From Verrucomicrobiia bacterium (GTDB lineage: Bacteria > Verrucomicrobiota > Verrucomicrobiia > CAIQCK01), in contig JBAYFL010000003.1 of NCBI GenBank assembly GCA_041667205.1, positions 126,325 to 190,324 on the forward strand: a stretch of DNA of 64,000 bases. The letters run 5' to 3'. A program made the position numbers and the translations under genes. Positions 28,602-45,270 of this stretch are shown piece after piece (position 1 is the stretch's first letter; every line of letters starts with the position of its first letter). The notes under the pieces are model-generated. The model worked only from the letters and a program-made list of their open reading frames with translations, had not been told where the DNA came from and did no database searches.

Positions 28602-29570
28602 ATGTTCTCGCTTCCCGACAATCCCCGCATTCTGGTGATTCGCGGCGGCGCGATTGGCGATTTCATCCTCACCCTCCCGGCCATCGGCGCGCTCCGCCAA
28701 CGCTGGCCGTCCGCGCGGCTGGAAATCCTCGGCTACCCGCGCATCGCCGCGCTCGCCGACGGGCGCTACTACGCCGACGCCGTCCGCTCGATTGACGCCG
28801 CAGCCATGGCACGCTTCTTCGTGCCGGAAGCCGAACTCGATCCGTCGCTCTGCGACTACTTCGCCAGCTTCGACCTCGTCCTCTCCTATCTCTACGACCC
28901 CGACGACATCTTCAGCGCCAACCTCGCCCGCGCCGGCGTTCCCCATCTTCTCCGCGCCTCGGCCAAGCCCGACCGCGAACACGCCGCCGCACACTTCGCC
29001 CGCCCGCTAGCCTCACTGGGCCTCCGCGCCGACCCGCCGCATCCGCGTCTCTACCCCAACGCCGCCGACCGCGCCTTCGCCGAATCCTTCTTCACTCTTC
29101 ACTCTTCACTCTTCACTCTTCACTCTCCCCGTCCCATCGCCCTCCATCCCGGCAGCGGCGGCGAACACAAAGTCTGGCCCGCCGACCGCTGGGCAGCCGT
29201 CATCCGCTGGCTGCGCGAACAACACGGCTGCGACATCCTACTCATCGGCGGCGAAGCTGACGACGCCGCGCGCCGCGCGCTCGCGCCATTCAACCTTCCC
29301 GTTGCGTGGAACCTGCCCCTGCCCCAACTCGCCGCCATCCTCGGACGCTGCGCGCTCTTCGCCGGCCACGACAGCGGCATCACCCATCTGGCCGCCGCCG
29401 TCGGCGTCCCGACGCTCGCGCTTTTCGGACCCACCTCGCCCAACATCTGGGCGCCGCTCGGCCCGCGTGTCCGCGTCGTCACCGCGAACGGCACGATGGA
29501 CACGCTCGCCGTGGAGATGGTGCTTGCGGTATTGCAGGAGGTGTTGCCCAACGTCGGAAAGTCTCGTTGA
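28602..29570 (+). CDS. Glycosyltransferase family 9 (LPS heptosyltransferase-like)
   Basis: 'ILVIRGGAIGDFILTLPAI' N-motif, and C-terminal 'GHDSGITHLAAAVGVPTLALFGPT' typical of RfaF/WaaC-type GT-B enzymes. Confidence 0.7.
   Translation: MFSLPDNPRILVIRGGAIGDFILTLPAIGALRQRWPSARLEILGYPRIAALADGRYYADAVRSIDAAAMARFFVPEAELDPSLCDYFASFDLVLSYLYDPDDIFSANLARAGVPHLLRASAKPDREHAAAHFARPLASLGLRADPPHPRLYPNAADRAFAESFFTLHSSLFTLHSPRPIALHPGSGGEHKVWPADRWAAVIRWLREQHGCDILLIGGEADDAARRALAPFNLPVAWNLPLPQLAAILGRCALFAGHDSGITHLAAAVGVPTLALFGPTSPNIWAPLGPRVRVVTANGTMDTLAVEMVLAVLQEVLPNVGKSR
29088..29127. repeat. Heptanucleotide tandem repeat (TTCACTC)x5.5 inside the GT9 coding sequence
   Basis: Five perfect units at 29091-29125 with partial flanking units. 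Encodes 'SFFTLHSSLFTLHS'. Confidence 0.85.
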
Positions 29571-29685
29571 GGATTCGGTAGAATGGATGTCCACATCCGT
29601 TCGTCGTAGTTGCAGACGTTCGCCACCGTCTACCAACGGGCTTGGAAGCCCGTTCTACGCTACGAACAAAAGCTCTCCGCCGCCG

Positions 29686-30972
29686 TTACTTCGTCCAGCC
29701 GAGTTTGTTGTTCAGCCGCGCTTTGTGGTAGGCGACGCGCTCCGCGTTGCTCATGCGACCGAAGTCGGGCGAGCCGTCGGGGAACATCGGCCATGAGGTG
29801 ACGGCCGCAGCCGGTGCATACACACTCGCCTTGGCCGTGTCGCGCTGTAGCGGCGGTCTCTGACCGCCGGTTGTCCCAAGTTTCTTTGAGACGGTGACGG
29901 TGGTCGGGCCAGCGTAACTCATCGAGGTGTCGGTGAGCTGCATGTCCTCGTCCAACGGCCGCTGCGGCTTGATGCCAAGCCCTTGCAGAACGCCATGGTA
30001 GGCGCGCACGGCTTCCTCCGGTTGCACCTGGCCGTCCACGATCCGCCGCAGCATCTCGATGAACGCAAGCTGGTGCTCGGCGTTGTTGATCTTCCTGCCG
30101 AAGAGCGCAACGCGCGCGCCGTATTTCTGCGCCTCGGCAATGAGCTTGAAGGCGTCATAGGTGGTGCCTGCGCCACCGCCGAGGATTCCCACCGGCAGGC
30201 TCGGATCGTAGGCGGCAAGTTCCTCGGTGAGCTTCGGACCGTGATAGACCATCTTCAAAAACACCGGCCGGCCACGCTCCGTGACGCCCGCCAGCGAACG
30301 AACAATGCTGTCGTTGACGAACGCGCCAAGCTTCTCCGGCGCGAGGCCGCTGTCCACGTTCGGGTCGAAGATTTCGAGGAAGTAACGGAAGCCCTTCCGC
30401 TCCGCCTCCTCACGGAACTCCTTGAACTCGCGCAGCGACTGCATGTCGCGATGGATGCAGTTGACGAAGGTGACCGAATAGAGGCCGAGGTTCGCGCCAA
30501 GGACGCGTTCCTTCGGCTCGCACTCGACCTTGCCGCACTGGATATGGTCAATCGTCGCGCTGCGGAACGGCCGCGAGGCCTCGCCCACGTAACGGCCACC
30601 GCGCACGACCCAGATGTCGGTGGTATCGTTGGCTCGCGCCGCGGGCGTGATGTGGCTGTTGTCGAAAAGGCGCTCCTTGATGGTGAGCCGCTCGTTGGTC
30701 GAGGCGGACATCAACATGATGTCAATCAGCCCCTGTCGCGTCACCTCGCGGATCAACTCGCAGAAATCCTCCACCGTTCGATACTTCGCCTCGTCGGGGC
30801 GGAACGCCTCCGGCGACTTCAACGCGCGCATGCGGGGGTCGCTCGGACTGAGGCGGCCGAACGATTCGACGCCACGCGCCATGTCGGGATCCTTGGCGTC
30901 GGCAATAATGAACGTCCGCGTCTGCGGGTTGCTGCGGATTTCCGCCAGCTTGGTATCGAGTGATTTTTGCAT
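29686..30972 (-). CDS. Class I aldolase superfamily (LacD/FbaB/LsrF-like) TIM-barrel protein; last gene of the BMC operon
   Basis: 'FIIADAKD' beta1-Asp motif, 'PVFLKMVY' candidate Schiff-base Lys strand and 'GARVALFGRKI' C-motif parallel those of LsrF/YihT. Start chosen at MQKSLD. Confidence 0.45.
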   Translation of the reverse strand: MQKSLDTKLAEIRSNPQTRTFIIADAKDPDMARGVESFGRLSPSDPRMRALKSPEAFRPDEAKYRTVEDFCELIREVTRQGLIDIMLMSASTNERLTIKERLFDNSHITPAARANDTTDIWVVRGGRYVGEASRPFRSATIDHIQCGKVECEPKERVLGANLGLYSVTFVNCIHRDMQSLREFKEFREEAERKGFRYFLEIFDPNVDSGLAPEKLGAFVNDSIVRSLAGVTERGRPVFLKMVYHGPKLTEELAAYDPSLPVGILGGGAGTTYDAFKLIAEAQKYGARVALFGRKINNAEHQLAFIEMLRRIVDGQVQPEEAVRAYHGVLQGLGIKPQRPLDEDMQLTDTSMSYAGPTTVTVSKKLGTTGGQRPPLQRDTAKASVYAPAAAVTSWPMFPDGSPDFGRMSNAERVAYHKARLNNKLGWTK

Positions 30973-31070
30973 TTGGGAACCGTGGCTCGCGATTCGCAAT
31001 TTGCAATCCGTGGCCCTGACAACCGCCACCGCTCGAATCACAAATCACGTATCGCGAGCCACAATCATCC

Positions 31071-32129
31071 TTACTTGTTCAGCGCCTTCATGACTTCTTC
31101 GGTCACAATCTTCACGATCGAATCCAAATCCGGCGACTGCGCCGATCCTTCGCCGGGATTTGCGCAAACCACGCCGGGCCGGAACTCGCACGCGCAGTAG
31201 TCCGCTTCCTTCAAACCAGTGCGTTCGTCAGGCAGACCGAGGCCCTGTTTGATCTTCAGCAGGTCGCCGATCTTGCTGCTCGGAATCTGCGTAAACGCCG
31301 AGCCGAGGTGCGACGCGATGACGACCGTGCGGCAATACGCGTCCACGATCTCCATGAACCAGTAGGCCTTCTCCAACTCCTCGTTCCACGTAAGGACGCC
31401 GTGGTTCTGCAGCAGGATGCAGTTGTGGTCCTTGCAATACGGCAGGACCGTCTCCGCGAATGCCTTCGTGCCCGGCGTCTCGTATTGCGCCTTCGCGACC
31501 GTGCCGACAAGCACTTCCATCTCCGGAATCATGCAGCGCGGCACCTCCGCGCCCGTGATGGCAAATGCCGTCGCGTGCGGTGGGTGCGCGTGGACGCAGG
31601 CGCGGGCCTTTGGCTGCGCCTTCATCGCTTCGAGGTGCAGGTAAATCTCGCTGGTGCGCTTGGCTGTGCCGGCGAGCTGGTTGCCGTCGAGATCCACCAT
31701 GCAGATGTCCTCGACGCGCATGATTCCTTTGCTCACCAGCGTCGGCGTGCAAAGCACTTCGTTTGGGCCGATGCGGACGCTGACGTTGCCGCCGTTGCCG
31801 TCCACGTATTCGCGCTTCCAGAGCCGGTGCGAAACGCTAACGATGTGCTCCTTGATACGCTGAGCCTCCGGCGAGTTGAACAGCTTCACGTGCTCCGGCT
31901 TCCACTTCGGTGTGGCCGCCGCGGGCGCGGGCGCACCATAGGGATCGCCGCCGTTCGAGCCGGCACTGCTCGCAGAAGCAGAAACCCCGTCGAACTGGAT
32001 CGTGACGCCGATGCTGCGCAGAAAATCCTTCGCCGAAGGCGTAACAATGGCGTCGGCCGGCGCGGCGAACGTCTTCGCTCCGCTGGCTTTCAGGTGGGTG
32101 ACATCTTTGAGTGCGATGACTTGTTTCAT
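31071..32129 (-). CDS. Class II aldolase (fuculose/rhamnulose-1-phosphate aldolase-like) with extra N-terminal domain and C-terminal encapsulation peptide
   Basis: 'GNGGNVSVRI', 'HAHPPHATAFA', 'LQNHGVLTW' class II aldolase/adducin motifs; a C-terminal amphipathic 'DLDSIVKIVTEEVMKALNK'. Confidence 0.8.
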   Translation of the reverse strand: MKQVIALKDVTHLKASGAKTFAAPADAIVTPSAKDFLRSIGVTIQFDGVSASASSAGSNGGDPYGAPAPAAATPKWKPEHVKLFNSPEAQRIKEHIVSVSHRLWKREYVDGNGGNVSVRIGPNEVLCTPTLVSKGIMRVEDICMVDLDGNQLAGTAKRTSEIYLHLEAMKAQPKARACVHAHPPHATAFAITGAEVPRCMIPEMEVLVGTVAKAQYETPGTKAFAETVLPYCKDHNCILLQNHGVLTWNEELEKAYWFMEIVDAYCRTVVIASHLGSAFTQIPSSKIGDLLKIKQGLGLPDERTGLKEADYCACEFRPGVVCANPGEGSAQSPDLDSIVKIVTEEVMKALNK

Positions 32130-32419
32130 GATTTCTTTGGCGGCATGTAATTGATTGTGTCCACGATAAGCGCGTTGTAAGCGTCAATCGGGCTTTCTTG
32201 TTCAAATGGCTGCGCGGCCTCGCGGCCCTCGACGTAACCGATGATGTTGCCGGTGCCCGCGCCGAGATTGTCGTAGCACACCAGCGACGGTTCCGTTGGC
32301 TGACCCTTGCCAGCGAGCGCCTCGCGGTTCAACGGCTGCACGACAAGCCAGCGGCCGCCGGTGAACGAATCCACCTGCCGTGACAACGTCACTTTGCCGA
32401 TGACCTTGCCGAGTTTCAT
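32126..32419 (-). CDS. BMC vertex protein (BMC-P, EutN/CcmL/PduN family)
   Basis: 'MKLGKVIGKVTLSR...' EutN-type N-terminus; approximately 97 aa. Confidence 0.8.
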   Translation of the reverse strand: MKLGKVIGKVTLSRQVDSFTGGRWLVVQPLNREALAGKGQPTEPSLVCYDNLGAGTGNIIGYVEGREAAQPFEQESPIDAYNALIVDTINYMPPKKS

Positions 32420-32673
32420 GTGTCTATGATCCCGATGACGCTGTTCCGAATCGGCGTCTTGCGGCAGTTCAACAACTCCGTCGCGTGTTTGCCGTCGGTC
32501 GTCACCATGACGCGCGAGTGAAGCCCCGAGCCGAGCGGGTCAATCGCTATCGTCGGCGAACCGATTTCCACGCCGTCCGCCGTGATAGGCTGGCAAATCA
32601 CGAACCGCCATCCGTGTGCACTCTTGTGCTTTACGGTGGCCGTCACATTGCCATCTACGCGACAGAGCATCAT
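32416..32673 (-). CDS. BMC vertex protein (BMC-P) paralog
   Basis: 85 aa, 'MMLCRVDGNVTATVKHKS' EutN-like. Confidence 0.7.
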   Translation of the reverse strand: MMLCRVDGNVTATVKHKSAHGWRFVICQPITADGVEIGSPTIAIDPLGSGLHSRVMVTTDGKHATELLNCRKTPIRNSVIGIIDT

Positions 32674-32676: not shown

Positions 32677-34146
32677 TTAGTAAATCCTCAACGAACCGGA
32701 CATCGTCAATCGGCGGAACCGAGTGTAAGTGAGCGGCGTCGTAATGCCCTCGCCGGTCGGCGTCGCGATGGAGTAGCTCAGGTAGCCTTCGCCACCGCCG
32801 CCGAGACCGGCGGTGCAAGGGCCGTTCGCGACAAAGATCGTCGTGTTCATCACCCGCGCCATCTCGGTGATCGTGTCGAGATTGCGGGAGTGAATGATCG
32901 CCGTGTGCCGGTAGTTGTGCTCGGCATGCTTCGACCGCTCAATGCCCTCGGCCGCGTCGCGCACGCGCACGACCGGCACGAACGGCATCATCTGCTCTTC
33001 CTCGACGAACGCGTGGTCCGCGTCCGTCTCGCCGAAGAGCAGCTCGCAACCGGACGGCACGTTCGCGCCGGCGGACTGCGCCAGCACGCTCACGTCCTTG
33101 CCGACGAGCTTCTTGTTCAACACCGGATGCGGACAGCCTGCGCCCTGGCCTTTTTCAAAAGTGAAAGCGTCTTTTGTCAGCGCCTCGATTTGCTGCGCAT
33201 TCAACTCGAACGCGCCGGCTTTCTTGAACGCCGCAATGAACCCGTTCCAAGCCTTGGCGGTGACAAAGATTTCCTTCTCACCGATGCAGAGCAGATTGTT
33301 GTCGTAACCGCCGCCGGCGATGATGCCCTTCGCGGCGTTATCGAAATCAGCTGTCTCATCCACCACGACGGGCGGATTGCCAGGGCCAGCGCAGATCGCG
33401 CGCTTGCCGGACGCCATCGCGGCCTTCACGACTGCCGGGCCGCCGGTCACGCACAGCAACGCGATATTCTGGTTGCTGCAAATCGCCTTGAAGCTCTCCA
33501 TCGTCGGCGGTTCAGCCGTGCAAAGCAGGTTCTCGATGCCGAGCGCGCCATGAATCGCCTCGTTGAACGCGCGCACCGCCATCGCCGCGCACTTGCTGGC
33601 AGCGGGGTGCGTGTTGAACACGACGGCGTTACCGGCGGAGACCATGTTGATCGCGTTGCAGCCGAGCGTAGGGATCGAGTGAGTCGAGGGCGTAATCGCG
33701 CCGATGACGCCGAACGGCGCGCACTCGTCAATCGTCGCACCGTTGTCGCCGGTCATCGCGACCCGGCGCAGAAAGTCCACGCCGGGAACTTTCTTCAGCA
33801 CCTTCAGCTTCTCGATCTTATGGTCAAGTCGACCAATTTTCGTCTCTTCCAACTCGATCCGGCCCCACGACTCCGCGTTCTTTTCGCAGAGCGTCTTGAC
33901 AATTTCCTCGACCTTGCGGCGGCCTTCAACTCCAGCCTTCGCAAGCTGCTTCTGCGCATGCGCAGCGGCTTCGCAGGCTTCGTTCGCGTCCGCGAAGATG
34001 CCGAAGCGGTTCGGCGCTCCAGCCTTCCGCGCAGACGGGCCGTGCGACGCCGGAGCAGGCGCTGCGGACATCGGCTGCTTCAGGCGGGCGATGACGTCCT
34101 GAACCAGATCGCGTATCTGTTGTTCGTTAATCGCAGGTGCGCTCAT
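32677..34146 (-). CDS. CoA-acylating aldehyde dehydrogenase (PduP/EutE family) with N-terminal encapsulation peptide
   Basis: N-terminal amphipathic 'INEQQIRDLVQDVIARL' plus an Ala/Pro linker, and catalytic Cys region 'LLCIGEKE'. Length and family fit PduP-like enzymes. Confidence 0.85.
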   Translation of the reverse strand: MSAPAINEQQIRDLVQDVIARLKQPMSAAPAPASHGPSARKAGAPNRFGIFADANEACEAAAHAQKQLAKAGVEGRRKVEEIVKTLCEKNAESWGRIELEETKIGRLDHKIEKLKVLKKVPGVDFLRRVAMTGDNGATIDECAPFGVIGAITPSTHSIPTLGCNAINMVSAGNAVVFNTHPAASKCAAMAVRAFNEAIHGALGIENLLCTAEPPTMESFKAICSNQNIALLCVTGGPAVVKAAMASGKRAICAGPGNPPVVVDETADFDNAAKGIIAGGGYDNNLLCIGEKEIFVTAKAWNGFIAAFKKAGAFELNAQQIEALTKDAFTFEKGQGAGCPHPVLNKKLVGKDVSVLAQSAGANVPSGCELLFGETDADHAFVEEEQMMPFVPVVRVRDAAEGIERSKHAEHNYRHTAIIHSRNLDTITEMARVMNTTIFVANGPCTAGLGGGGEGYLSYSIATPTGEGITTPLTYTRFRRLTMSGSLRIY

Positions 34147-34156: not shown

Positions 34157-34468
34157 TCACTTGCCGGTTTTGAAGATGATCTTGCCACCAACGTCCACGG
34201 CATCCACGATGCCGACAACGACCGCGTCCACCGGCGCGTCCTTCAGGCCATTAGCAAGCCGGGCGGAACTGCCCTGGCAAAACATCACCATCTCGTCCTC
34301 GCCTGCGCCGACGCTGTCCACCGCCACAATGGTGTTCACGCCGGGTTTGAGCTTCGTGTGGTCCTTGTCGTCCACGAGCATGGGCCGAAGGATGAGCAGC
34401 TTGCGGCCGAGCATCTTCGGGTCCTTCTTCGTGGCAACAACCGAGCCTTCAACTTTAGCCAAAAACAT
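34157..34468 (-). CDS. BMC vertex protein (BMC-P) paralog
   Basis: 'MFLAKVEGSVVATKK' EutN/CcmL N-terminus. Confidence 0.75.
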   Translation of the reverse strand: MFLAKVEGSVVATKKDPKMLGRKLLILRPMLVDDKDHTKLKPGVNTIVAVDSVGAGEDEMVMFCQGSSARLANGLKDAPVDAVVVGIVDAVDVGGKIIFKTGK

Positions 34469-34541: not shown

Positions 34542-34832
34542 TTACTTCTTCGATGATGCCGCGATCTTCGGCAGCACCACGCTGGTTTCCTCGTGCGGAC
34601 GAGCGATGACGTGGACGCTGACGACCTGGCCAATGGCCTTGGCCGCTTGAGCGCCCGCGTCGGTCGCCGCTTTGACAGCGGCAACATCGCCAACCACAAC
34701 GGCGGTCACGAGGCCGCTGCCGACCTTTTCCATGCCGACGAGTTTGACGTTGGCGGCCTTGAGCATTGCGTCCGTCGCCTCGACGAGCGCCACCAAGCCC
34801 TTTGTTTCAATCATTCCAATTGCATCTGCCAT
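34542..34832 (-). CDS. BMC-H hexameric shell protein (PduA/EutM family)
   Basis: '[25 protein letters not shown]...GDVAAVKAA' canonical BMC domain. Confidence 0.85.
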
Positions 34833-34861: not shown

Positions 34862-35983
34862 CTACTTCCTGCTTTCCAAAAGTTTTTTCACTTCGCGCGC
34901 CACGACAATTTCCTCGTTCGTCGGCACAACCATGATCTTCGCGCGCGAATCGGTCGTGCTGATGACTGTTTCCTGTCCTCGCTGATGAGCCGCGTTCTTT
35001 GCCGGATCGAGCCGGATGCCAAACCAATCGAGGTTGGCGCAAACCATTTCGCGCAACTGCGCCTGATTTTCGCCAATGCCGGCCGTGAACACGATGGCAT
35101 CGGCGCCGTTGAGCTGAACGAGGTAAGCCCCGATCCAGTGCCGGATGCTGTGCGCAAACACTTCCATCGCTAACTTCGCCCGCGCGTTACCTTGCTCGGC
35201 GGCGGTCGCGATATCGCGCACGTCGTTCGAGACGCCGCTGATGCCGAGCAGACCGCCTTCCTTGTTCATCGAACGGACAATCTGGTCAATCGTCAGCCCG
35301 TGCGTCTTCATCAGGAACGGAATCGCAAACGCGTCCAACTCGCCCACCCGGTTGTTGTGCGGCAGACCGGACTGCGGGCTCATGCCGAGCGAGTTGCCGA
35401 CGCCGCGGTTGCCGTGCGTCGCGCCGATGCTGTTGCTGCCGCCAAGGTGACACGAGATCACGCGGAGGTCGCTGCCACCGAGCAGTTTTGCAACGCGCTC
35501 GGCGATGTAGCGATGACTCGCGCCGTGAAACCCATAGGGCCGCACGCCCCAATCGGTCCATTGCTGCGGCACGGCATAACGCTTCGCCGCCTCTGGAGCA
35601 TTGACCCACCACGCCGTCTCAAACAACCCAACCATCGGCGTTCGCGGCAGCTTCTCACGGAACTTGCGGATACCGGCGATGTAAGGCGGGTTATGCGACG
35701 GCGCCACCTCGTTCATCTCCTCCATCGCCTTTAGCACGTCCTCGGTCAGCTCTGCGCAACCGAGAACGCCCTTGGCCAGCACGGTCTTGAAACCAACTGC
35801 CGTCAACTCCTGCAAGCGCGGGAGCACGCCGCTGGCTTTCATTTCCGCGAGCGACTTCTCGATCGCGTCGCCGTAATCGGTAACGCGCTCGAAGCCGCCC
35901 TTGGCCAGCGTCGCCTCCGTCGTCATGTCGAGCAGACGATACTTGAAGGAGGTCGAGCCGATGTTGGCGATAAGGATTTTCAT
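34862..35983 (-). CDS. ackA: Acetate/propionate kinase
   Basis: Start MKILIANIGSTSFKYRL with an AGGAG RBS (the longer ORF from 36052 is an extension). 'GFHGASHRY' motif. Confidence 0.85.
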   Translation of the reverse strand: MKILIANIGSTSFKYRLLDMTTEATLAKGGFERVTDYGDAIEKSLAEMKASGVLPRLQELTAVGFKTVLAKGVLGCAELTEDVLKAMEEMNEVAPSHNPPYIAGIRKFREKLPRTPMVGLFETAWWVNAPEAAKRYAVPQQWTDWGVRPYGFHGASHRYIAERVAKLLGGSDLRVISCHLGGSNSIGATHGNRGVGNSLGMSPQSGLPHNNRVGELDAFAIPFLMKTHGLTIDQIVRSMNKEGGLLGISGVSNDVRDIATAAEQGNARAKLAMEVFAHSIRHWIGAYLVQLNGADAIVFTAGIGENQAQLREMVCANLDWFGIRLDPAKNAAHQRGQETVISTTDSRAKIMVVPTNEEIVVAREVKKLLESRK

Positions 35984-36055
35984 TGCTCCTGAACGCGAAA
36001 GACGCCTGGCACCGTGACCTTCACAGCGCCGCGCTTCCTCTAACGTCAACAAGCC

Positions 36056-36337
36056 TTACGCTGAAATCCACTTGCCGAGACCGGGCAATTCCTCGTGCGG
36101 GCGCGGAATGACGTGCACGCTGACGACCTCGCCCACCTGGGCTGCCGCAGCCGCGCCGGCGTCCACAGCGGCCTTCACCGCCGCCACGTCGCCCTTGAAG
36201 AATGCCGCGACCAGACCCGAACCGACTTTTTCCCAGCCGGTGAGTTGGACGTTGGCGGCCTTCAACGCTGCGTCGCATCCTTCGAGCAACGCCGTGAGAC
36301 CCTTCGTTTCGATCATACCAATTGCTTGCAGTGCCAT
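36056..36337 (-). CDS. BMC-H shell protein
   Basis: Start [13 protein letters not shown] with an AAGGAGA RBS; canonical BMC domain. Confidence 0.85.
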
Positions 36338-36347
36338 GTGCGTCTCC

Positions 36348-36617
36348 TTATCCAATGAATGACTTCAACAGTTCCGGGCTGGGGCGCGGAATGACGTGGC
36401 TGGCGACCAGTTCGCCCACCTTGCCCGCCGCCGCCGAACCCGCGTCCACCGCGGCCTTCACGCTGCCGACATCGCCCTTCAACAGGACGGTGACGTAGCC
36501 GCCGCCGATCTGGATGGTCTTGATCAACGACACGTTGGCGGCTTTCACCGCTGCGTCGCTGGCCTCAACCGCGCCGACGTAACCTTTCGTTTCTATGATG
36601 CCAATACCTTCGTTCAT
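36348..36617 (-). CDS. BMC-H shell protein
   Basis: Start [12 protein letters not shown] with an AGGAGA RBS; canonical BMC domain. Confidence 0.85.
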
Positions 36618-36658
36618 TTTTCTCCTATCGTTTTTCCGGGCGGCCAACAGGGCCGTCC

Positions 36659-37330
36659 TTACTTCAACAACTCTACTCTGCTGTCCGGCCGCAAGCCACA
36701 GGCGTTCCCCTCGTCGGTGTCTATGTGCACCTCGAGCTTGAACGACTTGTCCACGCGGACAACCAAATCCTCAAATACCGCGCCGCATTCGCCGCCGACG
36801 CGCAGTTTCATCTTATCGCCATGCTTGACGCCGTAAAATGCCGCGTCCTCAAGGTTCATGTGCACGTGCCGCAACGCGCGAATCACGCCCTCCTCCACCT
36901 CAAAAAATCCCTTCGGCCCCATCAACATGCACCCCGGCGTGCCCTTGATGTTGCCGCTCATCCGCACCGGCACGTCAAAACCAAGCATAATGGAATCCGT
37001 GAACGCCAACTCCACCTGGTTCAACGTGCGGCAGGGACCAAGAATGCGCAGGTTTGATATGACGCGGCTCCGCGGCCCGATCAGCGTCACCATCTGCTCG
37101 GCAGCATACTGGCCGTCCTGATAGAGCATTTTCATCGGCTTGAGTTGCGCCCCCTTGCCGAACAACGCCTCCACCGCCTCTTGCGTCAGATGACAATGCC
37201 GCGCGCTGACGTTGACGACCAGCGGATTCGGCGGCGCTTTCGGCACCGGCGCCGTGGGACGGAACCGCGCGTAAACCGCTTCCCGCACGATTTGCTCGAC
37301 CGTGGACCGCTGGATTTGAGGCACGCTCAT
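36659..37330 (-). CDS. pduL: PduL-type phosphotransacylase with N-terminal encapsulation peptide
   Basis: Start MSVPQIQRSTVEQIVREAV (amphipathic EP). Two PduL repeats with 'SARHCHL' / 'LRHVHMN' metal-site His motifs. The 5' part of the annotated ORF (37331-37525) is promoter DNA. Confidence 0.8.
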   Translation of the reverse strand: MSVPQIQRSTVEQIVREAVYARFRPTAPVPKAPPNPLVVNVSARHCHLTQEAVEALFGKGAQLKPMKMLYQDGQYAAEQMVTLIGPRSRVISNLRILGPCRTLNQVELAFTDSIMLGFDVPVRMSGNIKGTPGCMLMGPKGFFEVEEGVIRALRHVHMNLEDAAFYGVKHGDKMKLRVGGECGAVFEDLVVRVDKSFKLEVHIDTDEGNACGLRPDSRVELLK

Positions 37331-37373
37331 GGCTGTTCCAGATTCAATCAATATCTTCCAAAACCGAGCAAGA

Positions 37374-37402
37374 TAAATAACGGATTTACCAATATCTGTC
37401 AA
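37374..37402 (-). promoter_or_regulatory. Candidate sigma70 promoter (minus strand) TTGACA-N17-TATTTA for the BMC operon
   Basis: Read on the minus strand. Lies in the AT-rich divergent region between pduL and the DeoR gene, which also carries an 8-bp direct repeat CAATATCT at 37349 and 37390. Confidence 0.35.
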
Positions 37403-37444
37403 CAACTTCTTGCATATTTTTTCCGCCGGTGCCAAATTCCGGCC

Positions 37445-38203
37445 GTGAAAGCGCCCGAACGATTCCGCCGAATTCAGGACTTGCTCGGCCAGCACGAGTT
37501 CCTCGACCTCGCCACGCTGGCTCACGACCTGAAGGCGTCAGAATCTACCATCCGCCGCGACCTCGACCAACTCGCCGCCAAAGGCGCCCTCAAGCGCACC
37601 CACGGCGGGGCAATGGCCGTCGAGCACAAGACAGACGAGTTGAATTTCGTGGTCCGCGACACCCGCCAAGCGGATGAGAAAGACCTGATCGGGCGCGCCA
37701 CGGCCGCGCTCGTGGAGAACGGCATGTCGGTTATCATTGACGGCGGCACCACCACCTACCACGTCGCCAAGCATCTTGGCGGCAAGCGCATCCAAGTCAT
37801 CACTAATTCGCTCCCCGTCGCCAACCAGTTCAGCAATTCCAGCATGGTGGAGACGATCATGTGCGGCGGGTTCATCTTCCCCCGCATTGGCGTGCTGCTG
37901 GGGCCGCTCGCAGAAGAATCTTTCTCAAAACTCCACGCCGATGTCGCGATCATGAGCGCTGGCGGCATCACCAGCGAAGGCATCACCAACTCGAACAACC
38001 TGATCGTGGCGGTGCAACAGAAGATGATGGCCGCCGCCAGTCGCGTCATCCTGTGTCTGGATCACACCAAGTTCGGGCGGCACGCACTCTCTTTTGCCGC
38101 ACCGCTGGAGAAGATTCACACCGTCATTACCGACAAGGACACCCCGCGCGACCAGATTGCCATGCTGCAAAAGCAGCGCATCGAAGTCATCGTCGCCCGC
38201 TAG
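37445..38203 (+). CDS. DeoR/GlpR-family transcriptional regulator, divergent from the BMC operon
   Basis: GTG start giving MKAPERFRRIQDLL. HTH 'STIRRDLDQLAAKGALKRTHGGA' and a C-terminal DeoR sugar-phosphate-binding domain. Confidence 0.75.
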   Translation: MKAPERFRRIQDLLGQHEFLDLATLAHDLKASESTIRRDLDQLAAKGALKRTHGGAMAVEHKTDELNFVVRDTRQADEKDLIGRATAALVENGMSVIIDGGTTTYHVAKHLGGKRIQVITNSLPVANQFSNSSMVETIMCGGFIFPRIGVLLGPLAEESFSKLHADVAIMSAGGITSEGITNSNNLIVAVQQKMMAAASRVILCLDHTKFGRHALSFAAPLEKIHTVITDKDTPRDQIAMLQKQRIEVIVAR

Positions 38204-38993: not shown

Positions 38994-41864
38994 TCACTGC
39001 GGGCGAATCTTCGCGGCAAGGTCGGTCTTGAGTTCGCCGGGCAGGAGGGTGAGTTTGCCGGCGTGGGCGGTCGCTTTCTCGGTGCGCACGGGCTTGCCCT
39101 TCCACGTTTCCCACCATTCCACCGCGTAGGTGCCGTCCGCGAAGCCGTCGAGGGTAATCCGCGAGGGTGGCACGGGCGGCACGGCGGATTTCTGGTGGTT
39201 GAACCAATCGCTCTCCTGGTTCTGCATCCAGACGATGCGGGGGCCGCCGACGGCCCGCAACGCCGCGACAAGCAGATTCGGCCGGTCGAGGACTTTGCAG
39301 CCGGTGAAGGCGTAGCGGGTGATGCGCATCCAGTCGCCGCCGAGGTTGTCCACGCGGATGCGATGTTTGCCGGCGGGCACGTCCACGGCCACGTCTTCGT
39401 CATAGACGGATTCCCACAGCTTCCACTTCGGCTGGTAGATCCACTGCTTGCCGATCTTCTCGCCGCAGGGGAACTCGCGGTTGAGTTTCTGTTCGCCGTC
39501 CACCCAGACGCGCAGGAGGCCGCTACGGGAGACGCGCCCGACGGTGATGATGAATTTGCCCGCGCGCGGGAACTCCACGACGAAGGTGGGCGGGTTGATG
39601 AGGTCGTGGTGCCCCATGCCGTGGAGTAGTTCGCGAATCTCCGCCGGGTCGTTGACGGTGCCGTCGCGTTGTATCCTGAACTCGCTGGCCGCGGGCTTGC
39701 CCCATTTGCTGACGGGCGAGAGGACGATGTCGCGCGTGATGGGCGATGCGGGCGGGTCCACATACTCGGTGGCGGCCACGCTGACTTGTTCCCATCGCGT
39801 GGTGCCGAAGGGAAGGCCTTTGGCGAAGTTGGCGATGGCGGTGAAGTGGAAGTAGAGGTTCAACGGCTCGATGTAGTTCTCGTGCCACCACGGCATCGGG
39901 ATGCCGCAGCAGCCACTGCAAAGCGCGGCCCAGTTGGCGTTGTGCAGGCCCCAGCCCTTCGGGTCCTTGTCGGCGGTGGAGGAATGGCTGCGGATGCCGA
40001 ACTCGCCGAAGATGTGCGGCTTCGCGAAGTTCGTCCACTGTTCGAGGCAGTAGCGGCGCACCTGCTCGGCGACGTTGCCGTCGTTGTTCGTGTAGCAATG
40101 GGTCTGCACAATGTCCATCCTCGGAATCCGCCAGCACGCCTCCGGGCCGGTCTTGCCCCACCAGCTCGTCGTGATGAGATGCCGATACGGGTCGAGCGCG
40201 GCGAGATAGTCGGACATCTCGCGATGCCACGCGTTCTTCGTCTCCTCGGTCGTGTCGGCCCATCCCTCAAATTCGTTGCCGAACTCCCAGCAGAGGATCT
40301 GCGGCGAGTAACCCCATCGCGCGACGGTGTAGCGCAGCCGTTTCTTATAGAGCGAGCGCGACGGCTCGCCGGTGAACCACTCGCTGACTTTCTCGCAGGG
40401 GCCACCGTTGGCTTTGTTGAACGGATTCGCCCGCCAGCCGCCCTCGCGGAAATCCTGATGCGTGTCCATGCAGAGCATGTAGTAGAAGTCCAGTTCCGCG
40501 GCGAGGTTGAGCAGGCTGTCGAGCCGTGCCGCCTGCGCCTGACGATACCAGCCGAGCCGATCTTCCCATTCGATGCCGAGGCTGGAGCTGGACATCCACC
40601 AACGGTTGTAGTTCTCGCCCTTCGCCGCCATCTTGCGGATCGCGTCGGGGCCGGTCTGCCCAGCGGTGTGATATCCGGGGAGGTTGTGACCGATCGGCAC
40701 GAACGACACGCCGGAATCGAACTGCAGATAATGCGGGTCCACGCGGCTCTGGCGCAGGAACCCCTTCCCCGCCGACGCCTTCACGGCAAACTCGCCCGCG
40801 TCCTTGCTCACGCTGCCGCTGCGGTCCTTCGCCGTGAGCTTCACGCGCAACGGCCCCGGCTCGACGCAAGCAACGCGCACGCACCAGCGGCCCTCGCCGA
40901 CCGGCGACATCACCTCCACGCCGTCCCGCACCTCGCGCCGGTAGTCCACCATAAAGAACCCCGGCTGCGTGAACTGTCGCCCCGACGCCGTCGTCACCGT
41001 CGCATCGAGCGCAACTTGGTCGGGATCGAACGGGTTCTCCCACGTGCCGCGCAGATCCACGCTCAATTCCAGCTTGCCGAAGCGCGGCACCGTCGCGCTT
41101 GTTGCACTGACCTTCCCAATAGCGAGCGGCTCGCGATGCGGCTCGATGTCGCCCGCGAACTTCTCCGGCAGCGTGTCAAAACCGATCTTGAGCAACGTGA
41201 CCACCTTCTTGCCAACGGGAAAATCCCCGGGGCGCAAGTTCATCTCGAAGCCCTGCGTCGTTTCGTTCACGCGACAGCGCAGCTCGCGAAATCCCTCGCC
41301 CGCGAACGCGACTGCGCGTCCATCGCCCAACTCCACCAGCAACGCCTCGCAATCACCGGAAACGTTGCCGCCCACCTTGCCGTGCGCGACCGGCCGCGCA
41401 AATAGCCGCCGCCCTGCAAACGCCTTCCGGTCGAATGAAATCGTCGCCCACAGCCCGGCCGTGAGCGACAGTGGCGCAGTCTTCTCCGTCTCCAAGTGCA
41501 GCACCGCGCCCTTCGCCGTCGGCTCCAATGCCAGCGTGTAGCGCATCGGCGCGGCACCCTCGCGAATCACCCACGTCCCGCTCTGCCGCAACCATCCTTT
41601 GCGATCCACCTCCGGCCCGCTTTCGATCTTGCCTGCGTCGAGCCGTTCGTGAATCCAAGCGTCGTGCCAAAGTGTGATGCTCAACCTCACCTCCGGCCCG
41701 CCCGCCCGCCTCACCGCCACCGTGCCTGGCGCGCGATAAACGATTTCATTCCCTGCGACGGCCAAAATAAACTCTTTGCCCCTGCTCTCCCAGCGTTGGG
41801 CAGACACAGGCGAGACGAGCGACAGAAACACGAACAATGTGGCGGCGTAAGAGAGGTTCTTCAT
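38994..41864 (-). CDS. Large secreted glycoside hydrolase-like protein (GH5-like TIM barrel with accessory beta-domains)
   Basis: Start MKNLSYAATLFVFLSLVSPVSA (signal peptide). 'ILCWEFGNEFEGW' NEP-type acid/base motif. Confidence 0.55.
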   Translation of the reverse strand: MKNLSYAATLFVFLSLVSPVSAQRWESRGKEFILAVAGNEIVYRAPGTVAVRRAGGPEVRLSITLWHDAWIHERLDAGKIESGPEVDRKGWLRQSGTWVIREGAAPMRYTLALEPTAKGAVLHLETEKTAPLSLTAGLWATISFDRKAFAGRRLFARPVAHGKVGGNVSGDCEALLVELGDGRAVAFAGEGFRELRCRVNETTQGFEMNLRPGDFPVGKKVVTLLKIGFDTLPEKFAGDIEPHREPLAIGKVSATSATVPRFGKLELSVDLRGTWENPFDPDQVALDATVTTASGRQFTQPGFFMVDYRREVRDGVEVMSPVGEGRWCVRVACVEPGPLRVKLTAKDRSGSVSKDAGEFAVKASAGKGFLRQSRVDPHYLQFDSGVSFVPIGHNLPGYHTAGQTGPDAIRKMAAKGENYNRWWMSSSSLGIEWEDRLGWYRQAQAARLDSLLNLAAELDFYYMLCMDTHQDFREGGWRANPFNKANGGPCEKVSEWFTGEPSRSLYKKRLRYTVARWGYSPQILCWEFGNEFEGWADTTEETKNAWHREMSDYLAALDPYRHLITTSWWGKTGPEACWRIPRMDIVQTHCYTNNDGNVAEQVRRYCLEQWTNFAKPHIFGEFGIRSHSSTADKDPKGWGLHNANWAALCSGCCGIPMPWWHENYIEPLNLYFHFTAIANFAKGLPFGTTRWEQVSVAATEYVDPPASPITRDIVLSPVSKWGKPAASEFRIQRDGTVNDPAEIRELLHGMGHHDLINPPTFVVEFPRAGKFIITVGRVSRSGLLRVWVDGEQKLNREFPCGEKIGKQWIYQPKWKLWESVYDEDVAVDVPAGKHRIRVDNLGGDWMRITRYAFTGCKVLDRPNLLVAALRAVGGPRIVWMQNQESDWFNHQKSAVPPVPPSRITLDGFADGTYAVEWWETWKGKPVRTEKATAHAGKLTLLPGELKTDLAAKIRPQ

Positions 41865-41945
41865 GGCAACAGCCAAGGAACCTACCCGTTGCCCGCAGCG
41901 ACTCAAAGGCAAAAACACAGAACAGGCAAGACGCCCGTCCTACGA

Positions 41946-43481
41946 TTACTTCTTCGGCGCAGTCAGCATTGGGAAGTCGTCGGTGCGGAATGGCGACGCG
42001 GGCAGGCCCACCTTGTTCCAGAGGTTGACGACGGGGAAGTTGGCCCAGCCGTAACGCACGGCGACCGGTTTGGCAACCTTGTCGCTGCACACGACGATCT
42101 TGTCGCCCTGAATCTCAGCCTGCGCGTTGACGAACTTCTTGTCCGCGCCGGCGATGGCGAAGCCTTTGAGCGCGCCGTCCTTGGCGGCGAGGCCGCCGCC
42201 AAGATGGGTGAAGCTGAGGATGGCTTTGTTGCCCTGCACCTTCATGCTGGCATAGGCCGGACCGGAGAACTCGATCTTCTCGCCATAAGCGATCGCCCGC
42301 GCGGCGAGTGCGAGACGCGCGCCAACCGGGTCCTTCTGTTTCGGATGCACGTCGTTCTCATCGCCAACGTCGGTGATAACGGCTTGCGCGGTCTTGGGCA
42401 AATTCAGCGCAGTCAACAGTTGCGCCTCGCGTAGTTCCGCCCAACCGCTTTCCTTCGGCTCGGCTTCAATCTTCATGAACGGCGCGAGTTGGACGAACAG
42501 GAATGGGAAAGCATAGCCCCAATCCTTGCGCCAGTTCTGGATCATTGCGGGGAAGAGCTTGCGATACTGAAAGGCGCGGCCGGCGTTGGACTCGCCCTGA
42601 TACCAGATGGCGCCAGCGACGGCATAAGGCTCCAGCGGGACGATCATGGCGTTGTAGAGGCCGCACGGGCGCTGCATGCTGGTGGTCGGATTCTGCGGCA
42701 GGCGCGGCACCTGTTTCTTCGCAGCCTTGGCCTTGGCGAGAATCTCCTTGTTGCGCACCTCGACTTTCGGCCAGTTCTTGATCGCTTCGGCGTGGTTGGC
42801 GAAGATTTCGGGAAACTCCTTTTCCAATACGCCCCGCTTCGTCCACGCCTCGGCGGGCGTGCCGCCGACGTTGGAACTGATGAGGCCCACCGGCACCTTC
42901 AGCGCCGCGCGCAAGTGCTTGCCGAAGAAGTAACCGACGGCGCTGAACGCCGGCAGCGTTTCCGGGCTGCACTCCTGCCACGCGACGGGCGGCTGGCCGG
43001 GCGACGCGGCGGGCAGCTCGGTCTGGGCTTCGTCCTTGGAAACGCGCGGGATGGTGATGAGCCGCAGCATCGGGTCTTTGCACTCCGCGATCACCTTCTC
43101 CGCGTCGGTGCTGCCCTTGACGTTCCACTGCATGTTCGACTGGCCGCTGCAAATCCAGACCTCGCCGACAAGGACGTTCTTTAGTTCGACGCTGTTCTTG
43201 CCGCAGATGGTCATCTTGAACGGCCCGCCCGCCTTCAGCGGCTTCAACCAGACCTTCCACTTGCCGCCCTTGGCGACCGTGGAGACCCCCTGACCGCAGA
43301 ACTTCACCGTCACCTTCTCGCCGTCGTCGGCCGTGCCCCAAATCGGCACCTTCTGACCTTGCTGTAGCACCGCGTTGTCCGTGAAAAGCCCGTGCGGTTT
43401 GACCACGGCAAACGCCGCCGTCGCCAGCATCAGCGCGAAAGTGGAAACTGCGATCAGACAAACTCGATTGAACCGCTGCAT
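41946..43481 (-). CDS. Sialate O-acetylesterase-like SGNH/DUF303 carbohydrate esterase, secreted
   Basis: Start MQRFNRVCLIAVSTFALMLATAAFA, with an AAGGAG RBS 6 nt upstream. 'VWICSGQSNMQ' GDSL-like motif. Tandem DUF303 domains. Confidence 0.7.
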   Translation of the reverse strand: MQRFNRVCLIAVSTFALMLATAAFAVVKPHGLFTDNAVLQQGQKVPIWGTADDGEKVTVKFCGQGVSTVAKGGKWKVWLKPLKAGGPFKMTICGKNSVELKNVLVGEVWICSGQSNMQWNVKGSTDAEKVIAECKDPMLRLITIPRVSKDEAQTELPAASPGQPPVAWQECSPETLPAFSAVGYFFGKHLRAALKVPVGLISSNVGGTPAEAWTKRGVLEKEFPEIFANHAEAIKNWPKVEVRNKEILAKAKAAKKQVPRLPQNPTTSMQRPCGLYNAMIVPLEPYAVAGAIWYQGESNAGRAFQYRKLFPAMIQNWRKDWGYAFPFLFVQLAPFMKIEAEPKESGWAELREAQLLTALNLPKTAQAVITDVGDENDVHPKQKDPVGARLALAARAIAYGEKIEFSGPAYASMKVQGNKAILSFTHLGGGLAAKDGALKGFAIAGADKKFVNAQAEIQGDKIVVCSDKVAKPVAVRYGWANFPVVNLWNKVGLPASPFRTDDFPMLTAPKK

Positions 43482-43614
43482 TATCATCTCCTTGGTTGAA
43501 TTCTCAGTCAGCGAACGGACGATGGTTTTATCGGCTCCCACGCGGATAGCAAGCCGGATTTCAGCGTTTCGCGGCTTGGAACGGCGGCACACGCGGTGTA
43601 AAGTCAGGCACTCC

Positions 43615-45270
43615 ATGAACCGAACACGTTCTTCCATCGGGATCGGCCAGTATCTGATCGAGCAACTCCACGGGCGCGGCGTGCGCCACGTTTTCGGTGT
43701 GCCGGGCGATTACGTGCTGGGCTTCTACGACATGATCCAGCACAGCCAACTGCGCATCGTCAACACCTGCGACGAGCAGGGCGCGGGCTTTGCCGCCGAC
43801 GCCTACGCGCGCCTGAACGGCCTTGGCGTGGTGTGCGTCACCTATTGCGTCGGCGGGCTGAAGGTGGCCAACTCAACAGCAGAGGCGTTTGCAGAGAAGT
43901 CGCCCGTAGTCGTTATCAGCGGCGCGCCCGGCATCGGCGAGCGCAGGAAGAATCCCCTGCTCCACCACAAGGTGCGTGAGTTCGACACGCAGAAGAAGGT
44001 GTTCGAGCAGATCACCGTCGCATCCACCGTGCTGAGCGATCCGCAGACGGCGTTGCAGGAAATTGACCGCGTGCTCTACGCCGCCGAGCGCTACAAGCGG
44101 CCGGTTTATATCGAGCTTCCCCGCGACATGGTGAGCGTGCCGGGCATTCCGCATCATACGCCACTCGAACTCCACGAGCCGAGCGACGCGCATTCGCTCA
44201 AGGCCTCGATGGAAGAGGCCGTCGCCATGATCAACGCCGCCAAGAAGCCGGTGATCCTCGCAGACGTGGAGGTGCATCGGTTCGGTCTGCAAGCGGAAGT
44301 GGTCCGCCTTGCCAAGAAGACGAACATCCCCGTCGCCGCCACTATCCTTGGCAAGTCGGTCATCGGAGAGAACCACCCGTTCTACCTCGGCGTCTATGAG
44401 GGCGCGATGGGCCGGGACGACGTGCGCGCTTACGTCGAGTCCAGCGACTGCGTCATCATGCTTGGCGCGTTCATGACCGACGTGAACCTCGGCATCTTCA
44501 CTGCGCGGCTGGACCAGGGCCGTTCCATCTACGCCACCAGCGAGAAGATCGCGGTGCGCTACCACAACTACGAGAACGTGCGGTTCGAGGACTTCCTGAG
44601 CGGCCTCACGCGCGCCAAACTGCGCCGCCGCACGCTCGGCAGGATTCCAAACCCACAACCGCCCGCCGCCTTCGTGCCGACGAAAGGGAAACTCACCGTC
44701 AAGCGCCTCTTCCAGCGGATCAACGCGCACCTCACGGAGAACACCATCGTCATCGCGGACGCCGGCGACGCGTTATTCGGCGCGGCCGACCTTTACATCC
44801 ATCACAGCACCGAATTCATCGGCTCGGCCTACTACGCCTCGCTGGGTTTCGCGGTGCCAGCGGCCATCGGCGCGCAACTGGCCAACCGCAAACTGCGCCC
44901 GCTGGTGCTTGTCGGCGACGGCGCGTTCCAGATGACCGGCATGGAACTGGCGACCGCCGCCCGTTTCGGCCTCAATCCCATCGTCGTCGTCCTAAACAAC
45001 TTCGGCTACGGCACCGAGCGCCCCATGCAAGACGGCCCCTACAACGACGTGTTGCCGTGGAACTACAGCCGCCTGCCCGAGTTCCTCGGCGCGGGCCGCG
45101 GTTTCCTTGTTCACACCGAAGAGGAACTCGACCGCGCCCTCACCGCTGCCGACCAGCACACCGACAGCTTCAGCATCATCGAGGCGCGGCTCGATCCCGC
45201 CGACTGCTCCCCTGCCCTGCGCCGCCTCACGGAGCGGCTGGCCAAGAGGGTCAAGGGCCAGGCAGCATAA
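43615..45270 (+). CDS. Thiamine-diphosphate-dependent 2-keto-acid (indolepyruvate/pyruvate/phenylpyruvate) decarboxylase
   Basis: 'VFGVPGDY', 'VCVTYCVGGL', and the TPP-binding 'GDGAFQMT...NN' motif. Start at MNRTRSSIGIGQYL. Confidence 0.8.
   Translation: MNRTRSSIGIGQYLIEQLHGRGVRHVFGVPGDYVLGFYDMIQHSQLRIVNTCDEQGAGFAADAYARLNGLGVVCVTYCVGGLKVANSTAEAFAEKSPVVVISGAPGIGERRKNPLLHHKVREFDTQKKVFEQITVASTVLSDPQTALQEIDRVLYAAERYKRPVYIELPRDMVSVPGIPHHTPLELHEPSDAHSLKASMEEAVAMINAAKKPVILADVEVHRFGLQAEVVRLAKKTNIPVAATILGKSVIGENHPFYLGVYEGAMGRDDVRAYVESSDCVIMLGAFMTDVNLGIFTARLDQGRSIYATSEKIAVRYHNYENVRFEDFLSGLTRAKLRRRTLGRIPNPQPPAAFVPTKGKLTVKRLFQRINAHLTENTIVIADAGDALFGAADLYIHHSTEFIGSAYYASLGFAVPAAIGAQLANRKLRPLVLVGDGAFQMTGMELATAARFGLNPIVVVLNNFGYGTERPMQDGPYNDVLPWNYSRLPEFLGAGRGFLVHTEEELDRALTAADQHTDSFSIIEARLDPADCSPALRRLTERLAKRVKGQAA

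Follow-up and report, generated by a model that had tools for sequence, protein, structure and literature searches.

The 64,000-nucleotide stretch of DNA analysed here (the window; Verrucomicrobiia bacterium, assembly GCA_041667205.1, contig JBAYFL010000003.1, positions 126,325 to 190,324) carries on its minus strand a complete microcompartment operon of the Planctomycetes and Verrucomicrobia (PVM) type, and the gene under study (the target; 29686..30972, stop codon 29686-29688) is the last gene of that operon. PVM compartments are organelles of Verrucomicrobiota and Planctomycetota that burn fucose and rhamnose from algal and plant polysaccharides, and the accepted model gives them one signature enzyme, a class II aldolase. 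The operon has three BMC-H and three BMC-P shell genes and enzymes corresponding to PvmB, PvmG, PvmJ, and PvmN. It begins with a PduL-type phosphotransacylase (PTAC, PvmB-type; 36659..37525; PF06130, E 1e-72; NF011652), followed by two BMC-H genes (36348-36647, PF00936; and 36056-36355, where a BMC-H sequence is seen in the translation), an acetate/propionate-family kinase (PvmG-type; 34862..36052; PF00871, E 3e-98; TIGR00016), a further BMC-H (34542-34832; PF00936), a BMC-P (34157-34468; PF03319), and a CoA-acylating aldehyde dehydrogenase (PvmJ-type; 32677..34146; PF00171; NF011927, E 1e-168) with an N-terminal encapsulation peptide (EP) recognised from its sequence. Two more BMC-P (EutN/CcmL) pentamer genes (32416-32673 and 32126-32419; PF03319, E 1e-19 and 2e-21) precede the class II aldolase, the PvmN-type signature enzyme (31071..32129; PF00596, E 1.6e-43 over aa 94-269), which has an N-terminal PvmL-like domain of about 50 aa and a C-terminal EP whose helix reads SPDLDSIVKIVTEEVMKALNK. 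The target follows. A DeoR-family regulator (37145..38203, plus strand; PF08220 and PF00455) is divergent from the operon, the same arrangement as in Fontisphaera persica; its open reading frame (ORF) is over-extended at the 5' end, and the helix-turn-helix domain starts at aa 108.

The target runs from ATG to TAA on the minus strand and encodes a 428-aa class-I-aldolase-like protein, as judged from the ORF and its translation, the alignment of homologues, and fold and profile evidence. A plus-strand reading of the same interval was rejected for its many stops. A longer ORF from GTG 31041 (451 aa) was likewise rejected, since 17 homologues in the alignment start with M-x-KSLD and leave the upstream start unsupported. 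The preliminary description of the gene had drawn attention to three motifs, all of which are found in the translation: FIIADAKD (aa 21-28), PVFLKMVY (aa 236-243), and GARVALFGRKI (aa 285-295). It had also called the protein much longer than LsrF, YihT, and LacD, and indeed the barrel core measures about 350 aa versus 250-325 aa in those enzymes, with about 75 aa of linker and tail in addition.

The terminal position in the operon, also proposed earlier, holds. The next gene, a heptosyltransferase (28602-29570), is convergent, and no conserved gene that might give a clue to the substrate lies downstream of the target among 80 related loci; the target is therefore terminal in the operon. Between the two convergent genes, a 9-bp GC-rich hairpin (AACGGGCTT-CCA-AAGCCCGTT; 29635..29654) was read from the sequence and is a possible marker of the operon's 3' end; it lacks a T-run, and the terminator scan did not pick it up. 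Terminator and promoter scans around the target were uninformative (three terminator-like sites versus 2.0 expected). In the 98-nt spacer that separates the class II aldolase gene from the target lies a long, near-perfect RNA hairpin (30980..31066, minus strand; minimum free energy -55.4 kcal/mol, z = -6.4) with a stem of about 37 bp, and none of 200 shuffled sequences folds equally well. This hairpin is kept in the closest relative (L001) with compensatory base changes on both sides of the stem, and the whole element is absent in L093. It could be an intercistronic mRNA stabiliser or a processing site that sets the expression of the last gene.

The AlphaFold2 (AF2) model of the target (mean predicted local distance difference test, pLDDT, 83.9; predicted TM-score 0.77) is an eight-stranded (beta/alpha)8 barrel, with the catalytic core at aa 1-350 (29923..30972, minus strand). 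The input alignment for this model included distant relatives; the 18 close homologues alone gave a pLDDT of 51. The barrel strands are beta-1 at 22-27 (D25, K27, followed by D28), beta-2 at 85-88, beta-3 at 109-113 (R113), beta-4 at 162-168, beta-5 at 196-202 (E200), beta-6 at 239-241 (K240), beta-7 at 261-264 followed by a GG pair (265-266), and beta-8 at 288-291 followed by GRK (292-294). An insertion specific to the target family (aa 114-161) contains the invariant cysteines C146 and C151. The barrel is most like members of the DhnA-type (PF01791-like) class I aldolase superfamily. In the fold comparison, the highest scores were obtained with ADH synthase of M. jannaschii (22.4), fructose-bisphosphate aldolase (FBA) of Slackia (21.7), LsrF of E. 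coli (21.5), fructose-bisphosphate (FBP) aldolase of T. tenax (21.4), sulfohexulose-1-phosphate aldolase (20.3), LacD (20.1), and YihT (19.8), followed by eukaryotic class I FBA (17.8); all other barrels scored 15 or less. The same enzymes rank at the top in Foldseek, with target-normalised TM-scores of 0.70-0.78.

Remote profile comparison places the candidate Schiff-base lysine, K240 (codon AAG, 30253..30255, minus strand), in the same position as the catalytic lysines of these enzymes. A search of the PDB with the family profile recovered LsrF (E 1e-4), with K240 in its FLK motif opposite K203, the residue that is alanine in the K203A mutant structure 4p2v; a PDB search with the single target sequence gave only noise. 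Alignment with hhalign to LsrF, MJ0400, and T. tenax FBP aldolase (probability 90%, E 1.4e-6, 215 columns) puts K240 in register with the Schiff-base lysine motifs IIK, IVK, and AMK, the last position corresponding to LsrF K203, T. tenax K177, and the MJ0400 lysine. It also places LGGGAGT (264-270) on the beta-7 GG loop (AGGKK/GGPK) and FGRK (291-294) on the beta-8 GRN loop. Across 93 full-length orthologues from Verrucomicrobiota and Planctomycetota, D25, K27, D28, D84, R113, N115, D116, C146, C151, E200, N205, K240, Y243, G265, G266, G269, T270, G292, R293, K294, and E299 are invariant (93/93). The invariant D25 lies within strand 22-27; its equivalence to the Asp of the xDHG motif falls outside the hhalign coverage, which runs from residue 68. 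On the model and these alignments, the target is predicted to be catalytically competent and to belong to a highly conserved branch, without a curated model of its own, of the DhnA-type (class Ia, Schiff-base) aldolase superfamily. The earlier label of a class-I-aldolase-like TIM barrel is right at the superfamily level, with K240 in the Schiff-base position and the phosphate-site motifs kept.

This branch is large. At least 8000 clusters at 90% identity matched in a homology search, every scored candidate being a match; the named proteins among the best 120 matches are all called 'hypothetical protein' and come mostly from Verrucomicrobiota. A second search, started with a Planctomycetaceae sequence, led to the same result for Pirellulales, and when it was used to look for an orthologue in Planctopirus limnophila, the best 120 matches were proteins from metagenome-assembled genomes only. 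More than 586 matching stretches were found in a collection with one genome per species, and a HMMER search of the library yielded 1049 cluster representatives at 50% identity. The target itself has no Pfam match. Relatives fall into two length classes, a long one of 390-450 aa and a short one of 330-340 aa that ends straight after the barrel. The name 'DhnA family fructose-bisphosphate aldolase class Ia', given in some sources to short forms from Asaia and further Alphaproteobacteria, lends the superfamily placement independent, automated support.

The target is tied to PVM loci in two phyla. We fetched 80 genomic loci with the target and scanned them for the proteins of the window operon; 68 have at least 2.5 kb of upstream sequence. 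Shell genes are present in 60 of these 68, and the class II aldolase lies upstream on the same strand in 59. Both Verrucomicrobiota and Planctomycetota (Phycisphaerae and Pirellulales among the latter) contribute loci linked to BMC genes. The target stands directly 3' of the class II aldolase in 28 loci and 3' of the Ldh/Mdh-family protein PvmO in 25. In the complete genome of the cultured bacterium Fontisphaera persica (CP116615.1; gene NXS98_00550), which has a PVM operon, the start of the target overlaps the aldolase stop by 4 nt. On two Planctomycetota contigs (L075, 1-1448; L076, 3069-13103), the target accompanies PVM shell and core genes without a class II aldolase. In both, it comes directly after the third BMC-P; in L076 it lies within the locus, with genes for a PduS-like flavoprotein and a tandem-domain BMC-T behind it. 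The 2021 BMC catalogue names PvmB, D, E, G, H, J, K, L, M, N, and O as PVM proteins. The target is not among them, either in the text or in the table of HMMs, which bears out the earlier remark that it is outside the canonical set; the 2014 locus taxonomy does not mention it, and no published description of the protein was found in the literature on PVM genes and aldolases and on ketohexokinase and fructose-1-phosphate (F1P) aldolase. The operon does encode two mechanistically different aldolase-type proteins, one class II and one of class I type, as previously proposed.

Behind the barrel, the target continues into a low-complexity, poorly conserved linker (aa 354-392; 29797..29913, minus strand), with pLDDT below 50 for aa 354-389. 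In orthologues this linker is 20-65 aa long (median 42), with a column conservation of 0.48 versus 0.83 for the core. It leads to a conserved C-terminal tail (aa 393-428; 29689..29796, minus strand; pLDDT 84-91) with the motif WPxxPDGxPDFxxM(S/T)xx(Q/E)RxAYxxxRLxxxxG in the alignments. The model forms a helix at 409-424, predicted to be amphipathic, and F404, M407, R412, and R419 are nearly invariant. The hydrophobic moment of the helix (0.48-0.53) is comparable to those of the EPs in the operon (0.47-0.56 for the aldehyde dehydrogenase, the class II aldolase, and PduL), with a mean hydrophobicity of -0.35 to -0.83 and a net charge of +4 to +6. Short-form homologues do not have the tail. EPs are defined by a helix at the protein terminus, preceded by a linker of low conservation (PMC4594438). 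The preliminary description had denied the protein an encapsulation peptide and placed the class I enzyme outside the shell; the disordered linker and the conserved peptide with its predicted helix do not bear out the former, and the latter has no basis since the target carries an EP-like extension; the enzyme may be enclosed by the shell, attached to it, or free outside. This extension looks like an EP, although an atypical one (basic and polar).

Several homologues away from PVM loci stand beside sugar kinases. Context was recovered for four short, tail-less relatives, all on contigs without BMC genes and in ordinary sugar clusters. The kinases next to relatives are of the FGGY (two), PfkB (one), ketohexokinase (two), and ADP-PFK-like (one) types, and one of the FGGY-kinase clusters also contains a plain class II aldolase. 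In L016 (8687-9982) and L044 (8744-9919 and 11364-12268), which have no BMC locus, a tail-bearing form directly follows a PF25270 prokaryotic ketohexokinase, and in L044 the row is ketohexokinase-type kinase, target homologue, and GlpX fructose-bisphosphatase (FBPase). A tail-less family member follows an ADP-PFK/GK-like kinase in L081 (3-1064). The kinase-aldolase pairs of L016, L044, and L081 may represent a bacterial route for ketose 1-phosphates that has not been described before. A divergent branch (P0184, P0212, and P0223; 30-34% identity) has lost K240 and kept the phosphate loops and the C-terminal tail. Two of its members, P0184 and P0223, are translationally coupled to a gene for an FHA-GAF-AAA+ sigma-54 activator, whose start they overlap (L088, 10001-13071; L089-L091). 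These K240-less relatives may be sugar-phosphate sensor pseudo-enzymes, and the strictly conserved tail Thr (DFxxMT) might be an FHA ligand.

Further features of the PVM loci were noted in the course of these comparisons. In a second PVM architecture, the aldolase is followed directly by a DeoR regulator gene, without PvmO and the target (L095, L103-L105, L110, L117, L122, L128, L131, L132, L135, L143, L152, L154, and L170). The N-terminal domain of about 50 aa on the PVM aldolase (…IVTPSAKDFLR…; aa 1-50, window 31980-32129) is found in Verrucomicrobiota, and Planctomycetota PVM aldolases are without it (L045, L049, L057, L064, L067, and L078). In L076, the same domain starts a separate 214-aa protein (9050-9694) between two BMC-P genes, which is probably PvmL, and the spacing of tblastn matches suggests that other Planctomycetota loci have a comparable additional gene in this place. 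The PvmL-like domain thus appears fused to the aldolase in one phylum and separate in the other. A reading of L076 as a pair like that of the sugar phosphate utilizing (SPU) compartments was set aside: the 214-aa neighbour matches RpiB weakly (21.9 bits, below the cut-off), and it is more likely PvmL because it shares the PvmL-like N-terminal domain. Inside the PVM operon of Fontisphaera persica (CP116615.1; L173, 5436-5831), a gene of the 23S_rRNA_IVP family (four-helix bundle) lies between the acetate kinase and a BMC-H gene.

Elsewhere in the window, a close LsrF orthologue (50189-51070, minus strand; E 2e-112 to E. coli LsrF), a canonical PF01791 aldolase-fold thiolase, lies 19 kb from the target. 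It adjoins a DhaL (Dak2) gene and the succinyl-CoA ligase genes sucC and sucD (51166-51816 and 47835-50033, minus strand), and is outside any lsr operon in this Verrucomicrobia-like genome. Polysaccharide-degrading genes flank the operon (38994-43637, minus strand, and 6851-10661, plus strand), encoding a GH5-like protein of 974 aa, a SASA-type carbohydrate esterase, a DUF4838 protein, and a GH42-like protein. Among the window ORFs scanned, none encodes an isomerase or kinase for fucose or rhamnose. A 1333-aa protein (55382-59383, minus strand) combines an FGE-sulfatase (formylglycine-generating-enzyme-like) domain with a hydrazine-synthase-alpha middle domain, and an AccI-like restriction endonuclease stands beside an N6/Eco57I-type methylase as a restriction-modification pair (4072-6668, plus strand).

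The analysis shows the barrel fold, the match of the lysine and phosphate motifs to those of known aldolases, the invariance of the residues, and the linkage to the operon in two phyla; an aldolase activity, a ketose-phosphate substrate, and a targeting role for the tail are what we infer. We see about an even chance that the target is a dihydroxyacetone phosphate (DHAP)-dependent ketose-phosphate aldolase that acts as an accessory second aldolase tied to the PVM (fucose/rhamnose) compartment. The combination of a beta-6 lysine, a beta-5 acid, a beta-1 Asp/Lys pair, and two phosphate loops points to Schiff-base chemistry on a ketose with a phosphate next to the carbonyl, as in a DHAP-type aldolase. 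K240 would form an imine with the C2 carbonyl of a ketose 1-phosphate or ketose 1,6-bisphosphate, while the GG (beta-7) and G-R-K (beta-8) loops would hold the 1-phosphate. Proton transfer by E200 and by D25 and K27 would then allow the C3-C4 bond to be cleaved or formed, yielding DHAP and an aldehyde in the cleavage direction. The protein would be expressed last, after the class II aldolase, and handle a ketose phosphate outside the range of that stereospecific enzyme, with the other 6-deoxy-ketohexose 1-phosphate as a candidate. Stereospecificity is a property of class II DHAP aldolases such as FucA and RhaD, and so a deoxy-ketohexose-1-phosphate that the FucA-like PvmN handles poorly would be an attractive substrate. 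The second ketose-phosphate substrate of the preliminary description is plausible, and a ketose phosphate fits because relatives adjoin sugar kinases that make such compounds. None of the evidence here points specifically to a sulfo-sugar. The flexible linker and the conserved basic C-terminal helix could tether the protein to the compartment or to a compartment protein.

Several observations weigh against the DHAP-dependent aldolase of the compartment. The hhalign alignment starts at residue 68 and leaves the N-terminal 67 residues, including the beta-1 Asp, unaligned. PF01791 matches none of 26 diverse relatives, even at E<=1, and NCBIfam gives only sub-threshold partial matches at aa 240-326 to ADH synthase, LsrF, and archaeal FBA (Fbpase1_Arch), with 16-24 bits versus cut-offs of 241-430. 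The target belongs to no curated Pfam or NCBIfam family. When we fetched 80 metagenomic loci through a PvmN alignment, of which 34 have at least 2.6 kb of downstream sequence, the target was found in only 12 of 34 PVM aldolase loci (~35%), and in the remainder a DeoR gene is usually at its position; where PvmO could be assessed, the target was present (8/8). Target loci mostly carry shell genes, as counted above (60/68). The target is thus an accessory 3' module rather than a core component, and in many lineages the compartment functions in its absence. The tail is more polar, with 16-21% large hydrophobic residues versus 26-36% in the canonical EPs of the operon, and is strongly basic and conserved in sequence. 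It occurs on homologues without a shell gene within 10 kb (8 of 68 loci, including L016 and L044) and on the K240-less branch (P0184, P0212, and P0223), two members of which are coupled to the sigma-54 activator; accordingly, it may serve oligomerisation or regulation instead of encapsulation. A targeting motif shared with other proteins was rejected, as the tail HMM matched no other ORF in the 80 loci or in the window. Finally, the GlpX and ketohexokinase contexts fit an FBP or F1P aldolase at least as well as a deoxy-sugar aldolase.

These contexts lead to the alternative of a cytosolic gluconeogenic FBP aldolase, or an 'aldolase-B-like' class I aldolase for F1P and FBP, co-expressed to pass the DHAP of the class II aldolase into gluconeogenesis, with a tail for oligomerisation or regulation. 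DHAP is the only glycolytic intermediate formed during growth on fucose or rhamnose, so that growth requires gluconeogenesis, and E. coli FbaB (DhnA), which is induced on C3 substrates, offers a parallel. Archaeal and bacterial class Ia FBP aldolases are among the closest folds, short forms carry DhnA-family FBA names in some sources, the kinase, target homologue, and GlpX FBPase of L044 are consecutive, and the tail is found away from shell genes too. That the target often accompanies the Ldh-like PvmO at the operon's 3' end would suit a 'product-processing' module handling lactate and DHAP. However, a housekeeping FBA would not be expected in PVM operons at 88% of loci, or in the place of the class II aldolase as in L075 and L076, and encapsulated enzymes are built with a variable linker and a terminal helix, which the non-BMC short forms lack. 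We regard the gluconeogenic role, the main rival, as unlikely, though it deserves serious consideration. Considerably less probable is a different Schiff-base reaction on a sugar phosphate, either an LsrF-like acyl transfer to CoA (diketo-sugar phosphate plus CoA to DHAP plus acyl-CoA) or a transfer of the ADH-synthase or transaldolase type, that would feed DHAP or acyl-CoA to the CoA-dependent core. LsrF and the ADH synthase MJ0400, which binds 6-deoxy-5-ketofructose-1-phosphate, are the best sequence and fold matches, and the compartment core cycles CoA through the acylating aldehyde dehydrogenase and PTAC. Yet identity to LsrF is just 13-16%, the LsrF equivalog model (NF006081) gives 18.6 bits versus a cut-off of 297, so that orthology to LsrF is not indicated, the true LsrF orthologue is already present in the window (50189-51070), and the loci have no conserved isomerase or oxidase to make the diketo substrate. 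The least probable of the alternatives, and a very improbable one, is a non-catalytic sugar-phosphate binder, core-packing scaffold, or sensor on a former aldolase fold. The loss of K240 with retention of the phosphate loops in the tail-bearing P0184, P0212, and P0223, and the sigma-54 coupling of P0184 and P0223, suggest a sensor role for that branch, and catalytically dead EP-bearing enzymes are known in other BMCs (PMC11585597). In the BMC-linked branch, however, the catalytic-type residues are 100% invariant in 93 sequences from two phyla, which is the pattern of an active enzyme, and the short forms stand beside kinases like ordinary pathway enzymes.

Returning to the accessory DHAP-dependent aldolase, a bolder version of it can be put forward only tentatively. 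In about one third of lineages, PVM compartments might hold two unrelated aldolases, the class I enzyme being recruited by a new basic, sequence-conserved C-terminal targeting peptide and widening the stereochemical or substrate range (L-fucose plus L-rhamnose, or other ketose phosphates); in some Planctomycetota (L075/L076-type) it might be the sole signature enzyme. The fold and the probable chemistry belong to known enzymes; what is new is a large unmodelled family, its insertions and tethered tail, and a systematic placement in PVM operons that current descriptions omit. Many PVM compartments probably work with a second aldolase that is left out of current models. If the target is active, additions would be due to the pathway model, to the inventory of encapsulated enzymes of this ecologically important organelle, and to the rules for EPs, and the claim that restricts class I aldolases to SPU compartments would have to be revised. 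Annotators gain a handle on a large 'dark' family, a member of which (NXS98_00550) is carried by a cultured and fully sequenced host, Fontisphaera persica.

Compared with the DhnA-type (class Ia) aldolases of PF01791 (DeoC/LacD), such as T. tenax FBP aldolase, MJ0400, LsrF, LacD, and YihT, the target has in common the beta-6 lysine aligned with the Schiff-base lysine, the GG (beta-7) and G-R (beta-8) phosphate loops, a helix before beta-1, and an acidic residue on beta-5 (E200 in the target, Glu in LacD). In contrast, it is only 12-16% identical to them and has no PF01791 or above-threshold NCBIfam match. Its core of about 350 aa, versus 250-325 aa, includes a 48-aa insertion with two invariant cysteines in place of helix alpha-3. 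The target also has an extra beta1-alpha1 loop and added C-terminal helices, and its core is followed by the variable linker and the conserved basic tail.

The tail shares with the canonical EPs of PduP, PduD, EutC, and CcmN (PMC4594438) a helix of about 16 aa at the terminus, comparable in hydrophobic moment, a poorly conserved linker of 20-65 aa rich in small and polar residues, and its absence from tail-less non-BMC homologues. It differs from them in having far fewer large hydrophobic residues, a net charge of +4 to +6, and a conserved motif (PDFxxM...R..AY...RL after WPxxPDG), and in being present on homologues away from shell genes as well. Among BMCs, the class I aldolase DERA has been described only in SPU loci (PMC11585597, 2024). 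This SPU signature enzyme, a PF01791 class I aldolase with an N-terminal EP (PMC11585597), resembles the target in its class I aldolase fold, in its place in a metabolosome locus beside an acylating aldehyde dehydrogenase, in a terminal extension that is missing from non-BMC homologues, and in products that would be an aldehyde and a triose phosphate. The extension of the target, however, is C-terminal, basic, and conserved in sequence, and its locus is of the PVM type with a class II aldolase.

The closest companion of the target is PvmN, the FucA-like class II enzyme that is the recognised PVM signature. The two genes are neighbours in one operon, and in some cases the stop codon of the first overlaps the start codon of the second. 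For both proteins the predicted reaction is cleavage of a ketose 1-phosphate to DHAP and an aldehyde, and both have a C-terminal extension behind a linker. PvmN was the query that defined the PVM loci of the reverse comparison and is hence in all of them by construction, whereas the target is in about one third. The two proteins are unrelated in fold and chemistry, PvmN being a metal-dependent class II aldolase with a canonical hydrophobic EP and the target a predicted Schiff-base aldolase of class I.

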